This document shows positions 1 to 35,566 of a stretch of 58,454 nt of DNA, one piece after another. A program made the translations under genes and the position numbers. Origin of the DNA: an uncultured Candidatus Saccharibacteria bacterium. Lineage in GTDB: Bacteria > Patescibacteriota > Minisyncoccia > Phycocordibacterales > UBA918. Position 1 is the stretch's first letter, and every line of letters begins with the position of its first letter. Under the pieces are notes generated by a model. It did not search any database. It saw nothing but the letters and a program-made list of their open reading frames with translations, and had not been told where the DNA came from. The stretch is from positions 1 to 58,454 of the forward strand of contig CAYRMI010000002.1 of NCBI GenBank assembly GCA_964425625.1. The letters are read 5' to 3'.

Positions 1-436
1 AGGTCGGGGGTGATGCCGTCAACTCCTCCTGGGCCGATGCTACCTACGAGTATGTCTACTCGCTGACCTCCCATAATGGCACCCTCTACGCCGGGTTAGG
101 CTCCACCGCTGGTGATGCCGAAGTCTGGGCCTATAACGGCAGTACCTGGAGCAAGGTCGGGGGTGATGCCGTCAACTCCTCCTGGGCCGATGCTACCTAC
201 GAGTATGTTTTCTCGCTGACCTCCCATAATGGCACGCTCTACGCGGGGCTTGGCTCTAATGCCGGTGATGCCGAAGTCTGGGCCTATAACGGCAGTACCT
301 GGAGCAAGGTCGGGGGTGATGCCGTCAACTCCTCCTGGGCCGATGCTACCTACGAGTATGTCTACTCGCTGACCTCCCATAATGGCACCCTCTACGCCGG
401 GTTAGGCTCCACCGCCGGCGACGCCGAAGTCTGGGC
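1..436 (+). repeat. 153-bp coding tandem repeat, about 2.85 copies visible
   Basis: AGGTCGGGGGTGATGCC recurs at 1, 154 and 307. 111-208 is identical to 264-361. Confidence 0.97.
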
Positions 437-2408
437 TTTCCCCACACCGACTATCGCTGGTACCTTAACCGGTAGTTCAGCTTTCAATAATTTCAATCTC
501 GCCGATGGCGCGCGGGTTTTTAGTAGCAGTGCTTCCACTTCTAACTTAACTATGGCTAGCTCCACGAGAATAGAAACCAACGCCAACCTTAGTGTGGCAG
601 GAACCCTAACCGCCAACCCCGGCACCACCCTCACCTTGGCCTCTGGCGCTACCACCACCGTCGGTACCCTAAACCTCCTTGGTGCCGCTAGTAGCACCAT
701 CACTCTTAATAGCACCGCCTCCGGCACACAGTCCAACTTTGTCCTCACTGGTTCATCAGCGGTGACATATACAACTATCAAAGACAACACTGCCTGTGGT
801 AGTGTCGGTGGTGTCATCGATGTATCGGGGGCTAATAACACCGATGGTGGCAACACCACCTGCTGGACCTTTGTGGCGGAAACAGGTTCTTCAAGTCTAG
901 CCTTAGCGCAGTCATATACTTTCTATACCGGAGAAGCCACCACCACCCTTGGTACTATCACTATCACCGACGCCCTGACCCCAACCATTACCGCGGCTAA
1001 CAACCTTCGCCTCACCATCGCCACTACGACCACCAACTTCCGGTTTGATACGGGGGTCACCACCCCGACCTTTGGTGGTAGTGCTTCCGGTAAAGTAGCG
1101 GGTACAGTTTCCTATGAAGACGGGGGAGCCACCCTCCTCATCGACGTCACAGAGAACTTCGCGGCTACCAATACGCTCACTATCGCTGGTATACAAGTCG
1201 GTAGCTTTGGCACTGTTTCTACCACCACCAGCCAGCTTCAGCTACACACCGATGGTAACAGTACCGGTACCCCAGCGGCACAATCAAACGAAACCTTCCG
1301 GATCACTGGCCTGCTGACACTAGCCAACCACGACGCCGGACAAGCCGATAACCAATTTAGTTACCAAAACCGGACTGAGGCTACCTTCTTTGCTTTCAAG
1401 CTTACCCCGACCGGAGAAACAGCCACCATGACGGATATGGTCGTGACCTTAAGTGGTATACAACCAGGGTTAACCACCGAGAAACTCCATACCTTCAAAC
1501 TCTACCGCGATAACAACAACGATGGACTACTAGATGGTGGTGATACACTGATTGATAGCAACGGTATCATGACTATCAATGGTCAACATGGCGCCATCAC
1601 CTGGAGCACCGACTTCCTCGCTACCACTACTTCTGACTACCTCATCATCGCCGACACGGTGGGGATTGATTTTGATGATGCGATTGTCTTCTTACTCCCC
1701 ACCACTGGTATCACCGCCACGGGTCAAACCTCAAACTACCAACCCACCATCAGCAGTACCGTCTCAGACATCCAACACCACCGTTTCCGCAGTGGTGGAG
1801 GCAAAAGCAACGCTGACCGGGTGGGTGGCGCACCACCAGCGGGGGGTAGTGTGGAGACTGGGGGTGAGAGTGGTGGCGGGAATCAGACTGGCGAAGTACC
1901 GGAAGGGGAGAACATCGTCGCTGATCCTGACTTTAGACAGCCTACTAACACCGGTACCCCAGACAACCAATGGACTAACCCGACTAACGCCTATAACTCC
2001 GATGGGGTCTACGCCACCGCTTCTTCCACCAACTTCAGTCAATCGTACTACAACTTCGGCTTTGGTATCCCCCAGGGCAACGCCATCAGTGGTATAGCAG
2101 TGAAGCTCGATGCTTCTGGTACTACCGCCGCGGGCACCATTGACGTTGCGCTCTCGTGGGACAATGGCAATTCATACACCACCGCCAAAGCCACCCCCAC
2201 CTTAAGTGGCGGCGACATTGTCTACACCGTGGGCGGGCCAGGCGACACCTGGGGACGAAACTGGAGCCAGAGTGAGTTTGCGAATGGTACCTTTATCCTG
2301 CGTATTAAGGCAGAGCCTTCAAGCAACACCCTTAAGCTCGATGCTCTCGAGGTACGCGTCCATCACCAAGCCACCGGTGGCGGGAGTGGTGGCGGGGGGA
2401 GGAGTTAG
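3..2408 (+). CDS. 3' part of a large secreted/surface protein (5'-truncated by window edge): 51-aa beta-propeller-like repeats, Thr/Gly-rich beta-sandwich domains, Gly-rich C-terminus
   Basis: Frame +3 is open from base 3 through the ORF-track start (552) to TAG 2408 (hand translated). Repeat unit KVGGDAVNSSWADATYEYVYSLTSHNGTLYAGLGSTAGDAEVWAYNGSTWS. Dx[DN]xDG-type motif DNNNDG. Ends GGGSGGGGRS. Confidence 0.85.
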   Translation, partial: VGGDAVNSSWADATYEYVYSLTSHNGTLYAGLGSTAGDAEVWAYNGSTWSKVGGDAVNSSWADATYEYVFSLTSHNGTLYAGLGSNAGDAEVWAYNGSTWSKVGGDAVNSSWADATYEYVYSLTSHNGTLYAGLGSTAGDAEVWAFPTPTIAGTLTGSSAFNNFNLADGARVFSSSASTSNLTMASSTRIETNANLSVAGTLTANPGTTLTLASGATTTVGTLNLLGAASSTITLNSTASGTQSNFVLTGSSAVTYTTIKDNTACGSVGGVIDVSGANNTDGGNTTCWTFVAETGSSSLALAQSYTFYTGEATTTLGTITITDALTPTITAANNLRLTIATTTTNFRFDTGVTTPTFGGSASGKVAGTVSYEDGGATLLIDVTENFAATNTLTIAGIQVGSFGTVSTTTSQLQLHTDGNSTGTPAAQSNETFRITGLLTLANHDAGQADNQFSYQNRTEATFFAFKLTPTGETATMTDMVVTLSGIQPGLTTEKLHTFKLYRDNNNDGLLDGGDTLIDSNGIMTINGQHGAITWSTDFLATTTSDYLIIADTVGIDFDDAIVFLLPTTGITATGQTSNYQPTISSTVSDIQHHRFRSGGGKSNADRVGGAPPAGGSVETGGESGGGNQTGEVPEGENIVADPDFRQPTNTGTPDNQWTNPTNAYNSDGVYATASSTNFSQSYYNFGFGIPQGNAISGIAVKLDASGTTAAGTIDVALSWDNGNSYTTAKATPTLSGGDIVYTVGGPGDTWGRNWSQSEFANGTFILRIKAEPSSNTLKLDALEVRVHHQATGGGSGGGGRS

Positions 2409-2462
2409 AGGGGCTAGGAGGGCGAGTGGTTGGGGTTGGCTTGTTTAACAACCTAAACCAAA

Positions 2463-2500
2463 TCCCCTAAATGTACCTGTTAACAGGTACATTTAGGGGA
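2463..2500. repeat. 38-bp perfect palindrome, family A copy 1
   Basis: TCCCCTAAATGTACCTGTT|AACAGGTACATTTAGGGGA. Same core at 30676 and 31124. Confidence 0.95.
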
Positions 2501-2526: not shown

Positions 2527-2557
2527 AGGTGGCAAAATCCGAAGGATTTTGCCACCT
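2527..2557. terminator. 14-bp hairpin, likely intrinsic terminator
   Basis: AGGTGGCAAAATCC-GAA-GGATTTTGCCACCT downstream of the large surface gene, preceded by an A-run. Confidence 0.55.
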
Positions 2558-2668
2558 TAGGCCACTACCTAATGGCACAAGTTATACACAATATAACTAT
2601 TAATAGGTAAAAATCTGGCAGTAGTTTGCTAAAATAGAACAGTAAAGTAATTATTAAAAAAACAAAAT

Positions 2669-3382
2669 ATGAACACACAAAATATTATTAATGCCACTTG
2701 GCAATCCTTAGTTGCTTCCACTCTAGCCATCGCTATAGTGGCGGTTAGCTTCTTTATTATTGAGCCTCAGATGGGTCAGGCAGCCACTAGTGGTCCATTT
2801 ACCATCAAGACTACTATTACCGATGAGATATCCTTTACCGCTAATGCTACCAACGTCACAGCGACTGGTTCTATTAATGGTATTACTGGAGGTACCGCTA
2901 ACGGTTCGACTAGTGTCACAGTGCGTACCAACAGCAACACTGGCTATAGTATGACGATTGCTTTTGCAAGCAACTCGACAGACAATGCCATGAAAGGAGA
3001 TGTGAGTGGTAGTACAGCAATTCACGACTATCCAGCAGTATCATCGACTACGCCAACCTTCCTGTTTTCCACCGCTAGTACCTCTTCGGTGTTTGGTTAT
3101 ACCGTGAGTGCGGATGCCGGTGCTACTGACTTGGCCCAGGCTTTCTTGGATGATGGAGCTGATTGTAATATTCCAATCGGTAGTGGTGGAGCTTACACCG
3201 CAGACCGCTGTTGGATGGAACCAATGACTAGTGCTTTTGAAATAATCGATCGAGGCACAGCGGCTGCTTCTGGCGCCACTAGTACGATCCACTTCCGCGT
3301 GCATGTACCAAACCTACCTAACCCATCGCTAGTAGCCGACACTTATACGGCCACGGCAACCTTGACAGCAGTTAACCAGTAG
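2669..3382 (+). CDS. Secreted WxL-like / pilin-like beta-sandwich protein (paralog 1)
   Basis: N-terminal hydrophobic signal ending near PQMGQA. Motifs GGTANGSTSVTV, GYSMTI and C-terminal TYTATATLTA resemble WxL-fold strands. One Cys pair. Confidence 0.6.
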   Translation: MNTQNIINATWQSLVASTLAIAIVAVSFFIIEPQMGQAATSGPFTIKTTITDEISFTANATNVTATGSINGITGGTANGSTSVTVRTNSNTGYSMTIAFASNSTDNAMKGDVSGSTAIHDYPAVSSTTPTFLFSTASTSSVFGYTVSADAGATDLAQAFLDDGADCNIPIGSGGAYTADRCWMEPMTSAFEIIDRGTAAASGATSTIHFRVHVPNLPNPSLVADTYTATATLTAVNQ

Positions 3383-3402: not shown

Positions 3403-4461
3403 ATGACTACAAAAATGTGTGTTCAATTTTGTATCTCTATTGTAGTAGCTGGTTTGGCCATAAGTTTTTTGCCTAACGTTGGTCTAGCCCAAGACAACAC
3501 CCCCACTTCTGATGAGGGTGTTGTTGCTAGTTCTACCGAAATAACTAGTCCAGTGGTGGTGGAGGAAATCCCTTGGTTTCGTATCGAGAAGTTGACGGGT
3601 GATAATCAAGCGATCGGTGACTTTGTGGTGGGGCCAGGGCGGGCGGAGATAGAAGTAAAGCCTGGTCAGACGGTGATTTATGAAATATCAGTCTCAAACC
3701 GAATTAGTGATAATCGCATCTTTGAGCTGACGGTGGAAGACGTGGCTGGTTCAAATGATGCCAGTCAAGCGGTGGTATTGCTCGGTGACGCGGTCGGACC
3801 ATACACGATTAAGGACTATATTTCTTTCCCTAAAAATACCTTCACCCTTCGCCTAGGGGAAAGAGCTCGTATTCCAGTAACGGTATCCATACCACCAAAC
3901 GCTGCTCCGGGTGGCTATTATGGTAGTGTGCTCGTGTCTACAGTGCAGGAAGAGCCCTTAAGTGAAGGACAGACCACTAGGTCACCTATTGTCGCTAGGG
4001 TGGGGACACTATTTTTTGTGACGGTGCCTGGGGAAATGAAATATGAAGGAGAAACCAAAGCTTTGACTCTAAAAAATAATCGTTTTTGGTATGAGAAAGG
4101 ACCGATAGTTTTAAATGTAATTTACGAAAATACTGGTTCGGTTCACCTTAATCCCTACGGCGAATTGCGCATCAAGAATCTGTTTGGTGAGGAGGTAGGT
4201 TTTGTTGAGTTGGAACCTTGGTTTGTTCTCCCTAAATCACTTCGTTCACGAGAAGTGACTTGGGATCGAGAATTGTTGTTTGGGCGCTATGTGGCTAGTG
4301 TCAGCATTAACCGTGGCTACGAGGATATAGTCGATGAGCAATCAGTGGTCTTTTGGGTCTTGCCGTGGAAAGTGGTAGCTGGTATTTTTGCTCTGGTATT
4401 TATCATCTTCTTTGGTTTTAGAATCTTCTTTAGAACGTTTGAGTTTAAACGCAAGACTTAG
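3403..4461 (+). CDS. DUF916/DUF3324-like (CscA-like) membrane-anchored protein
   Basis: Signal peptide; IPVTVSIPPNAAPGGYYGSVLVS...RVGTLFFVTVPG; NTGSVHLNPYGELRIKNLFG; C-terminal TM helix followed by basic tail FKRKT. Confidence 0.65.
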   Translation: MTTKMCVQFCISIVVAGLAISFLPNVGLAQDNTPTSDEGVVASSTEITSPVVVEEIPWFRIEKLTGDNQAIGDFVVGPGRAEIEVKPGQTVIYEISVSNRISDNRIFELTVEDVAGSNDASQAVVLLGDAVGPYTIKDYISFPKNTFTLRLGERARIPVTVSIPPNAAPGGYYGSVLVSTVQEEPLSEGQTTRSPIVARVGTLFFVTVPGEMKYEGETKALTLKNNRFWYEKGPIVLNVIYENTGSVHLNPYGELRIKNLFGEEVGFVELEPWFVLPKSLRSREVTWDRELLFGRYVASVSINRGYEDIVDEQSVVFWVLPWKVVAGIFALVFIIFFGFRIFFRTFEFKRKT

Positions 4462-30394: not shown

Positions 30395-30596
30395 ACAAAT
30401 AAACGCCCGAGCGAAAATATGACAGGAGTCATATTTTCGCTCGGGCGTTCTTTTCCTAAGAAAGTCGCGGTTCCACCGAGTTTCCGGTCAGTAAATTGAC
30501 CGCTTCTAAGCTACAGATTAGGGAATTTTTTCTTCCAACAACCTTTCGGTTAACCGAAAGGTTGTCTAGTGTTTGGTAGACACCACAATCTCTGTT
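30395..30596 (-). ncRNA. T-box riboswitch leader of thrS
   Basis: Minus strand: CTCGG-TGGAACC-GCG...CGC-CCGAG antiterminator. Overlapping 22-bp terminator (30402-30449) followed by TTTATTT. Stem III CGGTCA/TGACCG precedes the T-box. Confidence 0.85.
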
Positions 30597-30602
30597 TTAA
30601 TT

Positions 30603-30675: not shown

Positions 30676-30715
30676 ACCCGCTAAATCTACCTGTTAACAG
30701 GTAGATTTAGCGGGT
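30676..30715. repeat. 40-bp perfect palindrome, family A copy 2
   Basis: ACCCGCTAAATCTACCTGTT|AACAGGTAGATTTAGCGGGT; contains the stop codon of the TrpR-like gene. Confidence 0.95.
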
Positions 30716-31111
30716 CTTGAATGCGCGATTATATATTCTGGACCTGGCTCGAGAACTTACTTTTGCGAGAATTAAGTCTTGTATTAGTTCCACAAATTCG
30801 TTTTTTTCTTTTTTGCTTAGACAGTTGAGTAGGTTGTCAAATTGTCCGTCTTCATATTGTTTATAAATTCTTTGTGCGGTTGAGATACTTACACCCAAAG
30901 CCAGGGCTGTGCGGTAGGTAGAGAAATCATCATTAAAAAGAAGTGCAGCAGCGAATCTTTTGATAATCATTATTTTTTCCGCTTCAGTAAAGAGATCATT
31001 GATAAATACAGAAGCAGTTTGGTTGTTAAGTTTTGAGATTAGCTGAACTAATTTCTGGTGGGCGTGTTTATAGTCAGCACTATCGATTTGCAATTTTGAG
31101 ACGTTGGTCAT
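30707..31111 (-). CDS. TrpR-like (YerC/YecD family) helix-turn-helix regulator
   Basis: LFTEAEKIMIIKRFAAALLF...STYRTALALGVSISTAQRI fits the TrpR-family LT..E...L..R......L....SY..I....G.S..TI.R pattern. Confidence 0.75.
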   Translation of the reverse strand: MTNVSKLQIDSADYKHAHQKLVQLISKLNNQTASVFINDLFTEAEKIMIIKRFAAALLFNDDFSTYRTALALGVSISTAQRIYKQYEDGQFDNLLNCLSKKEKNEFVELIQDLILAKVSSRARSRIYNRAFKTR

Positions 31112-31117
31112 TGTTTA

Positions 31118-31159
31118 AGTATACCCCTAAATCTACCTGTTAACAGGTAGATTTAGGGG
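31118..31159 (-). promoter_or_regulatory. -10 box (TATACT, 31118-31123) abutting 36-bp palindrome family A copy 3 (31124-31159); candidate operator
   Basis: CCCCTAAATCTACCTGTT|AACAGGTAGATTTAGGGG covers the spacer/-35 zone. The ATG is 6 nt after the -10 box. Confidence 0.7.
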
Positions 31160-34468: not shown

Positions 34469-34619
34469 GGGATTGCCTCAAAAAAAAGACACAGATAAAA
34501 GCCCCAGCGGGCTTTTTCTTATGCTCGGCGACCGGTCCTGCCACAGCGCTTCGCGCAATTAAGGGGTGGCAGGCACCGGCTCCGGTCGCCTGCGCAATGT
34601 CTTTTTTTGAGGCAATCCC
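34469..34619. repeat. Structured dispersed repeat copy 1 (119-bp core 34486-34604 inside about 22-bp terminal inverted arms)
   Basis: Core is 118/119 identical to 35335-35453. Arms GGGATTGCCTC(A8)GACA / TGTC(T7)GAGGCAATCCC. Confidence 0.95.
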
Positions 34620-34633
34620 TCGCTCTTTGGTGG

Positions 34634-34717: not shown

Positions 34718-35347
34718 ATGTCTAAAGCTAAATACCTGGTGGGAATTGACGAAGCTGGACGTGGGCCTTTGGCTGGGCCGGTGGCGGTGGGGGTGGTTTG
34801 TGTGCCGAGGGATTTTAATTGGCGGTTAATCCCGGGAGTGGGTGATTCTAAGCAAGTGAAGGAGAAAAATCGCGAAGCGATTTTTCTCCTAGCCAAAAGA
34901 CTAAAGCAGGAAAAAGTGTTTGATTACGCCGTGACACTGGTTAGTGCAAAAATAATTGACCAAAAGGGAATTAGTAAAGCAGTACAAATTGGTATCGATA
35001 AAGGTCTTAGGAAGTTGGCTCTGTCGGAGAATGAGGTGGAGGTGAAACTCGATGGTTTGTTGCAGGCCCCGGCAGAATACCGAAACCAAGAGACAATTAT
35101 TAAAGGTGATGATAAGGAGTTGGTGATTGGTTTAGCGTCGATTTTGGCCAAGGTAACGCGTGATACATATATGAAGAAGTTGGCCAAGAATAATGAGTAC
35201 TTGGCTTATGAATTTGCTACTCATAAAGGTTATGGGACGAAAATGCACCGGGAAGCTATCGTCCAAAACGGTCTATCCGGAGAACATCGTGTTAGCTTTT
35301 GTAAGAGTTTACTCGCTCTTGAGTACCTCAAACCAAGACACAGATAA
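34718..35347 (+). CDS. rnhB: Ribonuclease HII
   Basis: GIDEAGRGPLAGPV, DSKQ, IKGD, ASILAKVTRD, HKGYGT. The stop codon lies inside repeat copy 2. Confidence 0.96.
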   Translation: MSKAKYLVGIDEAGRGPLAGPVAVGVVCVPRDFNWRLIPGVGDSKQVKEKNREAIFLLAKRLKQEKVFDYAVTLVSAKIIDQKGISKAVQIGIDKGLRKLALSENEVEVKLDGLLQAPAEYRNQETIIKGDDKELVIGLASILAKVTRDTYMKKLAKNNEYLAYEFATHKGYGTKMHREAIVQNGLSGEHRVSFCKSLLALEYLKPRHR

Positions 35348-35466
35348 AAGCCCCAGCGGGCTTTTTCTTATGCTCAGCGACCGGTCCTGCCACAGCGCTT
35401 CGCGCAATTAAGGGGTGGCAGGCACCGGCTCCGGTCGCCTGCGCAATGTCTTTGTTTGCGGTGCTC
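35321..35466. repeat. Structured dispersed repeat copy 2
   Basis: Same 119-bp core; different, imperfect outer arms GAGTACCTCAAACCAAGACA / TGTCTTTGTTTGCGGTGCTC. Confidence 0.95.
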
Positions 35467-35566
35467 CTTCGCTATATAAATCGAAGCCCGTTTTGTAGAA
35501 GAAATTCTTAAGGAAAATCTGTAAGAGTCCATGATTGAGGTCTTTAATCTAATCCAGACAATTTAG

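Follow-up and report, generated by a model that had tools for sequence, protein, structure and literature searches.

The perfect palindrome at positions 2463–2500 of the window (the whole 58,454-nucleotide stretch of DNA that was analysed) belongs to a family of palindromes of which two further copies bracket a gene for a TrpR-like protein, P0001. It is read here, with moderate confidence, as a lineage-specific dispersed copy that would form a hairpin of about -29 kcal/mol after the upstream stop codon, very likely still binds P0001 and may serve as a local roadblock or insulator. A role as a conserved switch of the downstream operon is not supported by comparison with orthologous loci. The ThrS protein of this genome (G000, 1.03 Mb) shares 87% identity with its counterpart in Ca. 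Kaiserbacteria RIFCSPLOWO2_01_FULL_45_25, and the lineage is, as judged from its sequence, Kaiserbacteria-like Patescibacteria.

The palindrome, designated copy 1, reads TCCCCTAAATGTACCTGTT followed without a loop by AACAGGTACATTTAGGGGA and is 38 nt long, with 19-nt arms. An earlier note on this DNA had described it as a further copy of a palindrome found elsewhere in the window, which was borne out: copies 2 and 3, which bracket the minus-strand ORF 30707–31111 (Table 1), have 34 of 36 bases in common with it. Over the 36 nt shared by copies 1–3, the differences fall at arm position 9, which is G, C or A and is always mirrored in the opposite arm; copy 2 additionally has CCGC where the others have CCCC. 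Core positions 2–7 and 11–15 of copy 1 are those of copies 2 and 3, which are of the autoregulatory type. The weak likeness to copy 2 that the note had seen in the 5′ flank (CTAAACCAA and CTAACCAA) is real, since a BLAST match extends over query positions 48–91 (86%). The note had also correctly placed the palindrome 54 nt past the stop codon of ORF 3–2408 (2406–2408), and the -10 box TGCTAAAAT at 2627–2635, which orthologous promoters keep as TTTGCTAAAAT. A whole-genome scan, in which a reversed control pattern gave no matches, located copy 4 on contig 12 (G000:C12:5683–5744), so that class A copies in this genome number four in total.

Table 1. Features around the palindrome copies in the window; '.' marks features given without a strand.
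Feature	Positions	Strand	Remarks
Upstream large ORF	3–2408	+	5′ open; Gly-rich C-terminus; no Pfam family; stop 54 nt before the palindrome
Left flank CTAAACCAAAT	2449–2462	.	Resembles flanks of copy 2 and of several relatives' copies; minus strand gives the T-rich tail TTTGGTTTAG
Copy 1, orphan, class A palindrome (CCCCTAAATgTACCTGTT / AACAGGTAcATTTAGGGG)	2463–2500	.	19-nt arms, zero loop; RNA hairpin -28.9 kcal/mol
Second hairpin	2527–2557	-	14 bp, -22.1 kcal/mol; T-run on minus strand only
Motif GTTATACACAA	2581–2591	+	Conserved upstream of orthologous operons, ~38 nt ahead of the -10
Degenerate site TAACTATTAATAGGTA	2594–2609	.	Covers the -35 region; 16-nt core matched with 3 mismatches; weak lead
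Extended -10 TGCTAAAAT of downstream operon	2627–2635	+	Kept in orthologs
First gene of downstream operon	2669–3382	+	237 aa; no Pfam family; orthologs in 129/164 other family genomes
Class B palindrome CCTTTCGGTTAACCGAAAGG, thrS leader	30538–30565	.	Orphan; gene of its specificity class absent from the genome
Copy 2	30676–30715	.	Overlaps stop codon of the TrpR-like gene
TrpR-like gene, P0001	30707–31111	-	134 aa; presumed binder, from profile and fold comparisons
Copy 3	31124–31159	.	12 nt upstream of the ATG of the TrpR-like gene

P0001 matches the Pfam family HTH_23 and falls below the cut-off for Trp_repressor (21.3 vs 27 bits), while NCBIfam and PHROGs returned no significant family. A profile of 18 homologs matches the TrpR-like structures 3G1C (HisR type; E 4.4e-7), 3FRW (3.7e-6) and 3KOR (1.8e-5). 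When an AlphaFold (AF2) model of P0001 with a pLDDT of 89 was compared by Foldseek, TrpR or TrpR-like proteins made up nearly all of the best matches, including ranks 1–8 (3FRW, TMt 0.76), with E values of only ~0.3. On the evidence of the profile and the predicted model, P0001 carries the signature of the TrpR fold and family.

Homologs of P0001 occur in 81 of the 165 genomes of the taxonomic family, with at most five matches per genome; a search with P0001 alone led to one short Kaiserbacteria contig. Of 37 TrpR-like genes that were examined, 31 are bracketed by two palindromes belonging to a single class (10 or more of 12 arm pairs), compared with 3.9% of background windows, and the other six have one clear copy and one degraded or mis-windowed copy. 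The palindrome classes differ among paralogs (for example, TACCTGTTAACAGGTA, TAGTACGGTTAACCGTACTA, CCTTTCGATTAATCGAAAGG and ATCGCGGTTAACCGCGAT), and the recognition helix tracks the class: S[IVL]ST.QR goes with ACCTG, SDSTVRE with TCGCG, and W..SP[ST]TA with TAGTAC, the last pairing recurring in two separate subfamilies. The published TrpR motif is TGTAcTnGTnnACnAgTACA (PMC9413887), and the class palindromes have the same architecture.

Because the bracketing, the co-variation of helix and palindrome, and the profile and fold comparisons agree, the premise of the earlier note that the TrpR-like protein binds the palindrome is well supported, and these proteins are predicted to bind palindromes of their own class. 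Copy 1 matches the gene-flanking copies at all conserved positions and is therefore a predicted cognate-type site that should be bound too. A distant, YerC-like paralog branch (149 aa) is likewise bracketed by palindromes, of another type (ACTTATCATCGATGATAAGT or TATA centre), at L098 (G040:C13), positions 1338–1896, and at L096 and L097 (G103).

The arrangement is comparable to that of E. coli TrpR, with its trp operators and autoregulated trpR, and of HisR/YerC in Firmicutes (PF01371; 1TRO, 3G1C). P0001 resembles these proteins in being small, all-helical and TrpR-like in fold; their sites, like those described here, are palindromes of ~20 bp with a centre of the GT-nn-AC type (PMC9413887). 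A site also lies beside the gene's own start codon in both cases, which suggests autoregulation. Unlike in the TrpR and HisR systems, the gene here is bracketed on both sides, the palindromes are perfect and span 24–62 nt, each genome holds many fast-diverging paralogs with a private site each, and the orphan sites are neither linked to promoters nor conserved at orthologous genes. The proteins further differ from TrpR in having a C-terminal basic tail, which TrpR lacks.

Fourteen further genomes, every one from the same genus, have 1–4 copies each of a 28-nt class A pattern when up to three mismatches are allowed, and an exact search of 185,579 species genomes found the class A pattern only in Patescibacteria MAGs, several of them already covered by the family search. 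Orphan copies, outside the gene-flanking positions, lie in convergent, tandem and divergent gene contexts, beside genes with no common function (flavoprotein/pseudouridine synthase, SAM synthetase, glycosyltransferase/FtsW, MBL hydrolase, ABC ATPase, GDSL lipase, NYN, dnaE), and appear to form no coherent regulon in these data. Across 42 distinct copies, positions 2–7 and 12–15 are near-invariant, positions 8–11 show up to three pair types while still being 88–100% complementary, and symmetry falls to background past position 17. Orthologous orphans in G085 and G110 are far better conserved than their flanks and stand two mirrored double substitutions apart.

Several orphans are nested in other hairpins. 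Copy 4 still has the outer-stem sequences (AAAACCGG/CCGGTTTT) found in G103 in the orthologous terminator between PNPOx and tRNA-Pro, but its apex is formed by the class A core. One hairpin of the thrS leader is topped by a perfect palindrome that differs from relative to relative; the one in G000 and G040 is of class B. An orthologous position that follows an MBL-hydrolase gene and precedes a canonical terminator has a TrpR-type palindrome in 4 of 30 genomes (class C in G000 and G071, class A in G040, a TCGA-centred variant in G076) and the terminator only in the others. The orphan copies thus show constraint on sequence, as would be imposed by protein contacts, constraint on the hairpin and its symmetry, and copy-and-replace dynamics where hairpins lie.

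Some of these loci have features of their own. The thrS leader (30395–30600; L153–L156, L174, L186) is T-box-like, with conserved AGAGATTG..ACCAAACACCAG ... GAAGCTCGGTGGAACCGCGG and a terminator hairpin; at the Rfam gathering threshold only tRNA was called in the window, and neither this leader nor the palindrome matched a family. Its class B palindrome in G000 and G040 is identical over 22 nt to the sites flanking a TrpR-like gene of G126. At copy 4, a duplicate of the final ~20 nt of tRNA-Pro(GGG) lies ~195 nt downstream and abuts the palindrome (G000:C12:5402–5744; L004, 1218–1545), resembling what an insertion at the 3′ end of the tRNA would leave behind; in G103, G071 and G124 the terminator lies directly beside tRNA-Pro. 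Upstream of the C4_18387 ortholog (L010, 761–1450, and L015, from G085 and G110), a long non-coding stretch contains blocks that are almost the same in both species (e.g. GAACTGAGTATAATATCTCTAATACTCAGTTATAT) and may be a structured RNA.

The earlier note had suggested that the TrpR-like protein may control surface or attachment structures through copy 1, and this is not supported. None of the 29 orthologous operons compared has a TTAA- or TATA-centred palindrome of this kind in the 450 nt upstream, and these palindrome-free loci include genomes with class A palindromes elsewhere (G103, G040 and G149); the note itself had suggested this conservation check and had counted absence from orthologous operons against its own proposal. 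The palindrome centre (2481.5) lies ~150 nt upstream of the -10 (2630–2635), and the conserved promoter block GTTATACACAA...TTGCTAAAAT is entirely downstream of the palindrome; copy 1 is therefore outside the conserved promoter. Promoter prediction found no promoter-like site inside copy 1. Operators of the TrpR/HisR family overlap the promoter that they regulate and are conserved upstream of orthologous targets, neither of which is seen for copy 1, and they match the protein's own sites, as copy 1 does (34 of 36 bases against copy 3). The note's labels for the flanking genes are also to be taken loosely: ORF 3–2408, called a giant adhesin, has no Pfam match, and the term WxL-like goes back to a single sub-threshold match to WxLIP_PGBD (E 0.002) in ORF 3403–4461.

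The spacer that contains copy 1 is variable. Orthologous promoters conserve GTTATACACAA, a spacer of ~38 nt and then TTTGCTAAAAT; the distance from the upstream stop codon to GTTATACACAA is 4–80 nt in 12 of 18 measurable relatives, compared with 172 nt in G000, and the extra DNA in G000 contains copy 1 and the second hairpin at 2527–2557. Seven relatives have unrelated hairpins upstream of the first gene of the operon. GTTATACACAA itself is kept in many species of the genus (2581–2591 and loci L050–L078) and may bind a conserved factor. At the other end of the spacer, G-rich sequence runs on past the TAG stop of the upstream ORF (2409–2448; AGGGGCTAGGAGGGCGAGTGGTTGGGGTTGG) and resembles a continuation of the Gly-rich tail; by its sequence, this stop codon may be recent.

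Four public sequencing runs yielded only contigs that are broken at the palindrome, and gave neither ends of transcripts nor a presence/absence junction. One public contig (X12 record 3), ~92% identical, contains the 3′ end of the upstream gene and the palindrome and then departs from the window, in a form indistinguishable from a repeat-induced chimera. The public RNA run X18 covers only 3098–3380.

It is rather unlikely that copy 1 is a true operator, at which P0001 would repress or tune the 2669 operon, as a recently recruited regulon member, by looping or cooperative binding to copy 1 and to the weak site at 2594–2609. The core of copy 1 is the same as that of the gene-flanking copies, and the weak site, 120 nt away, is the sole match to the 16-nt core with at most three mismatches in the whole genome. 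Its position over the -35 region would fit looping and is what leaves this explanation some probability; one orphan in G070 also fills an 86-nt divergent promoter region. Yet ~5 such imperfect matches are expected genome-wide by chance, and the right half of the weak site overlaps sequence common to the closest orthologous promoters. The absence of the palindrome from orthologous operons, its distance from the -10, the lack of a common function among genes beside orphans and the retention of orphans where no class A gene was found argue in the same direction.

The earlier note had also allowed a terminator or REP role, a fallback that comes closer to the data than its operator proposal: the stable stem past the stop codon agrees with it, whereas the + strand has no T-run and the bracketed gene encodes no HUH Y1 transposase. 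As RNA, copy 1 folds into a 17-bp stem of -28.9 kcal/mol, which suffices for a terminator stem, and the region of the two hairpins has a z-score of -9.3 on either strand. On the + strand the stem is followed by GGGTCATTGA, with no T-run, and T-rich sequence (TTTGGTTTAG) occurs on the minus strand only, so copy 1 would be a poor canonical terminator for the upstream gene. It shares with bidirectional intrinsic terminators a stable, GC-containing stem past a stop codon, and copy 4 matches them with full A-run and T-run flanks between convergent genes. Unlike such terminators, copy 1 has no T-run on the transcribed strand, and the 30-nt core keeps its sequence from one species and locus to the next. 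The second hairpin (2527–2557) sits between two + strand genes; an A-run precedes it on the + strand, and no minus-strand gene lies nearby.

Perfect palindromes are abundant in this genome. Those with zero loop and arms of at least 12 nt number 22, compared with ~0.07 expected by our own calculation from the genome base composition. With arms of at least 9 nt there are 35, compared with ~4 expected, and most perfect palindromes in G000 are terminators of the bidirectional kind, whose A/T runs are mirrored and whose 4-nt centres are self-complementary (CTAG, TTAA, AGCT, TATA). In quasipalindrome mutagenesis, template switching 'perfects' hairpins. The excess of perfect palindromes and the mirrored changes in situ would fit such perfecting, and template switching between hairpins, or quasipalindrome-type copying, is the favoured putative route by which copies arise.

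This abundance is one of the points that speak for a hairpin acting independently of the protein, an unlikely reading in which copy 1 would be no more than a hairpin of RNA or DNA, whether a terminator, a stabiliser of the mRNA 3′ end or a neutral relic, would owe its likeness to a TrpR site to copying, and P0001 would be irrelevant. Class A orphans are conserved and symmetric in G085, G110, G040, G043 and G070, in which no class A gene was found; four of these genomes (G085, G040, G043 and G070, 95–98% complete) have orphans and no TrpR-like gene flanked by class A palindromes. G000 itself retains palindromes of classes B and C, for which it has no matching gene, and orphans are nested within terminator and leader hairpins. 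These palindromes interrupt assemblies (G103:C81, for instance, ends in one), so that the absence of a cognate gene from some genomes could be assembly loss. Against a protein-independent role, the cognate P0001 is encoded here and its flanking site is 34/36 identical to copy 1, so that binding would be hard to avoid; the near-invariance of positions 2–7 and 12–15 in the 42 copies exceeds the needs of a hairpin, and the + strand lacks the T-run that a terminator would use.

The palindrome–gene–palindrome modules behave differently from the orphans. They occupy ~9 recurrent syntenic slots among housekeeping genes, including dnaE/thrS, dprA/topA, metG/tatD, recJ, uvrD, aaRS/mreB and secA. Empty slots in G000 are clean, with no solo-palindrome footprints; no module was found within 1.5 kb of thrS in 80 public relatives, and no module remnant in G040. 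The recurrent slots and clean empty slots suggest that the modules are inherited and come and go as whole units, with a faster turnover of the orphans. An amino-acid regulon was considered and dropped, the slot neighbours being mixed housekeeping genes, as was a decayed module beside copy 1, with no TrpR-like coding remnant in 2380–2700 (best tblastn E ~0.1). Upstream of dnaE lies a 144-nt direct repeat (34481–34624 and 35330–35473), 94% identical and 849 nt apart.

Very improbable, on the present comparisons, is a recombination or mobility site, with the palindromes as att- or REP-like ends that move either the whole module or the palindrome alone and copy 1 as a landing pad or footprint. Close relatives of the gene do occur in different slots (dnaE/thrS and dprA/topA), ~10–28 nt of flank are common to non-orthologous copies (G118, G040:C7 and copy 2), and copy 4 abuts the duplicated tRNA-Pro 3′ end. 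In G103, moreover, an NYN-domain gene is bracketed by two class A copies (L079 (G103:C78), 804–1953), which lie 1122 nt apart, each with a duplicate of ~60 nt of right flank. But the slots are kept across genera, as by inheritance, those that are empty are clean of solo palindromes, and copy 1 has no TrpR-like gene remnant beside it. No recombinase or transposase is linked to modules or palindromes, and the four Y1_Tnp-like (PF01797) genes of G000 carry unrelated hairpins, which also set aside a RAYT link. No target-site duplication was seen, and orthologous spacers, at 67–80% identity, are too diverged for a clean empty-site comparison; the intergenic alignment of G000 with G103 is likewise too diverged for insertion mapping.

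The REPtrons of Gammaproteobacteria (REP/RAYT) offer a further comparison. As in these, the gene has extragenic palindromes of its own on both sides and dispersed copies lie at gene 3′ ends, and as with REP elements the copies form hairpins with mirrored changes. Unlike in REPtrons, the protein here is a TrpR-like HTH protein and not an HUH Y1 transposase, each class has only 1–4 copies per genome, and the RAYT-like genes of G000 carry unrelated hairpins. It is decidedly doubtful, though conceivable, that TrpR-like proteins and their private palindromes constitute a REPtron-like system without an HUH transposase, in which palindromes would be copied, genome-wide, into the apices of existing hairpins (terminators, leader stems and gene 3′ ends), the HTH gene would drive or police their spread, and copy 1 would be a colonisation event and no regulon site.

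The palindrome family, the co-variation of protein and palindrome, the non-conservation at orthologous operons and the nesting of orphans in older hairpins can be read directly from the sequences. In the favoured reading, that of a dispersed copy with a local role, a palindrome recognised by P0001 would have been copied into the variable spacer that separates the upstream ORF's stop codon from the conserved promoter block. There the transcript of the upstream ORF would end in a hairpin of high stability, and the duplex DNA of the site would very likely still be bound by a P0001 dimer. The bound site may then be a roadblock that keeps read-through away from the operon promoter, rather than a promoter operator. 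RTP of B. subtilis, a dimeric DNA-binding protein of small size, is encoded next to its own Ter sites and has a few further roadblock sites scattered in intergenic DNA. P0001 resembles it as a small DNA-binding protein with its gene beside its own sites and few scattered intergenic sites; it differs in fold, and Ter sites are asymmetric and polar whereas the palindromes here are perfect.

This case tells apart two look-alikes in raw sequence, the operator of a regulator and a dispersed hairpin of the same sequence. It is a warning that regulons should not be inferred from single palindrome matches in these genomes, and it provides evidence for a spread and persistence of such sites that do not depend on promoters. 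For the Patescibacteria, whose few regulators have hardly been studied, it supplies a testable pair of protein and site with a readable specificity code, in which recognition helix is set against half-site. If it is true that the spread is driven by the protein, palindrome dispersal here would represent a system of a new kind.
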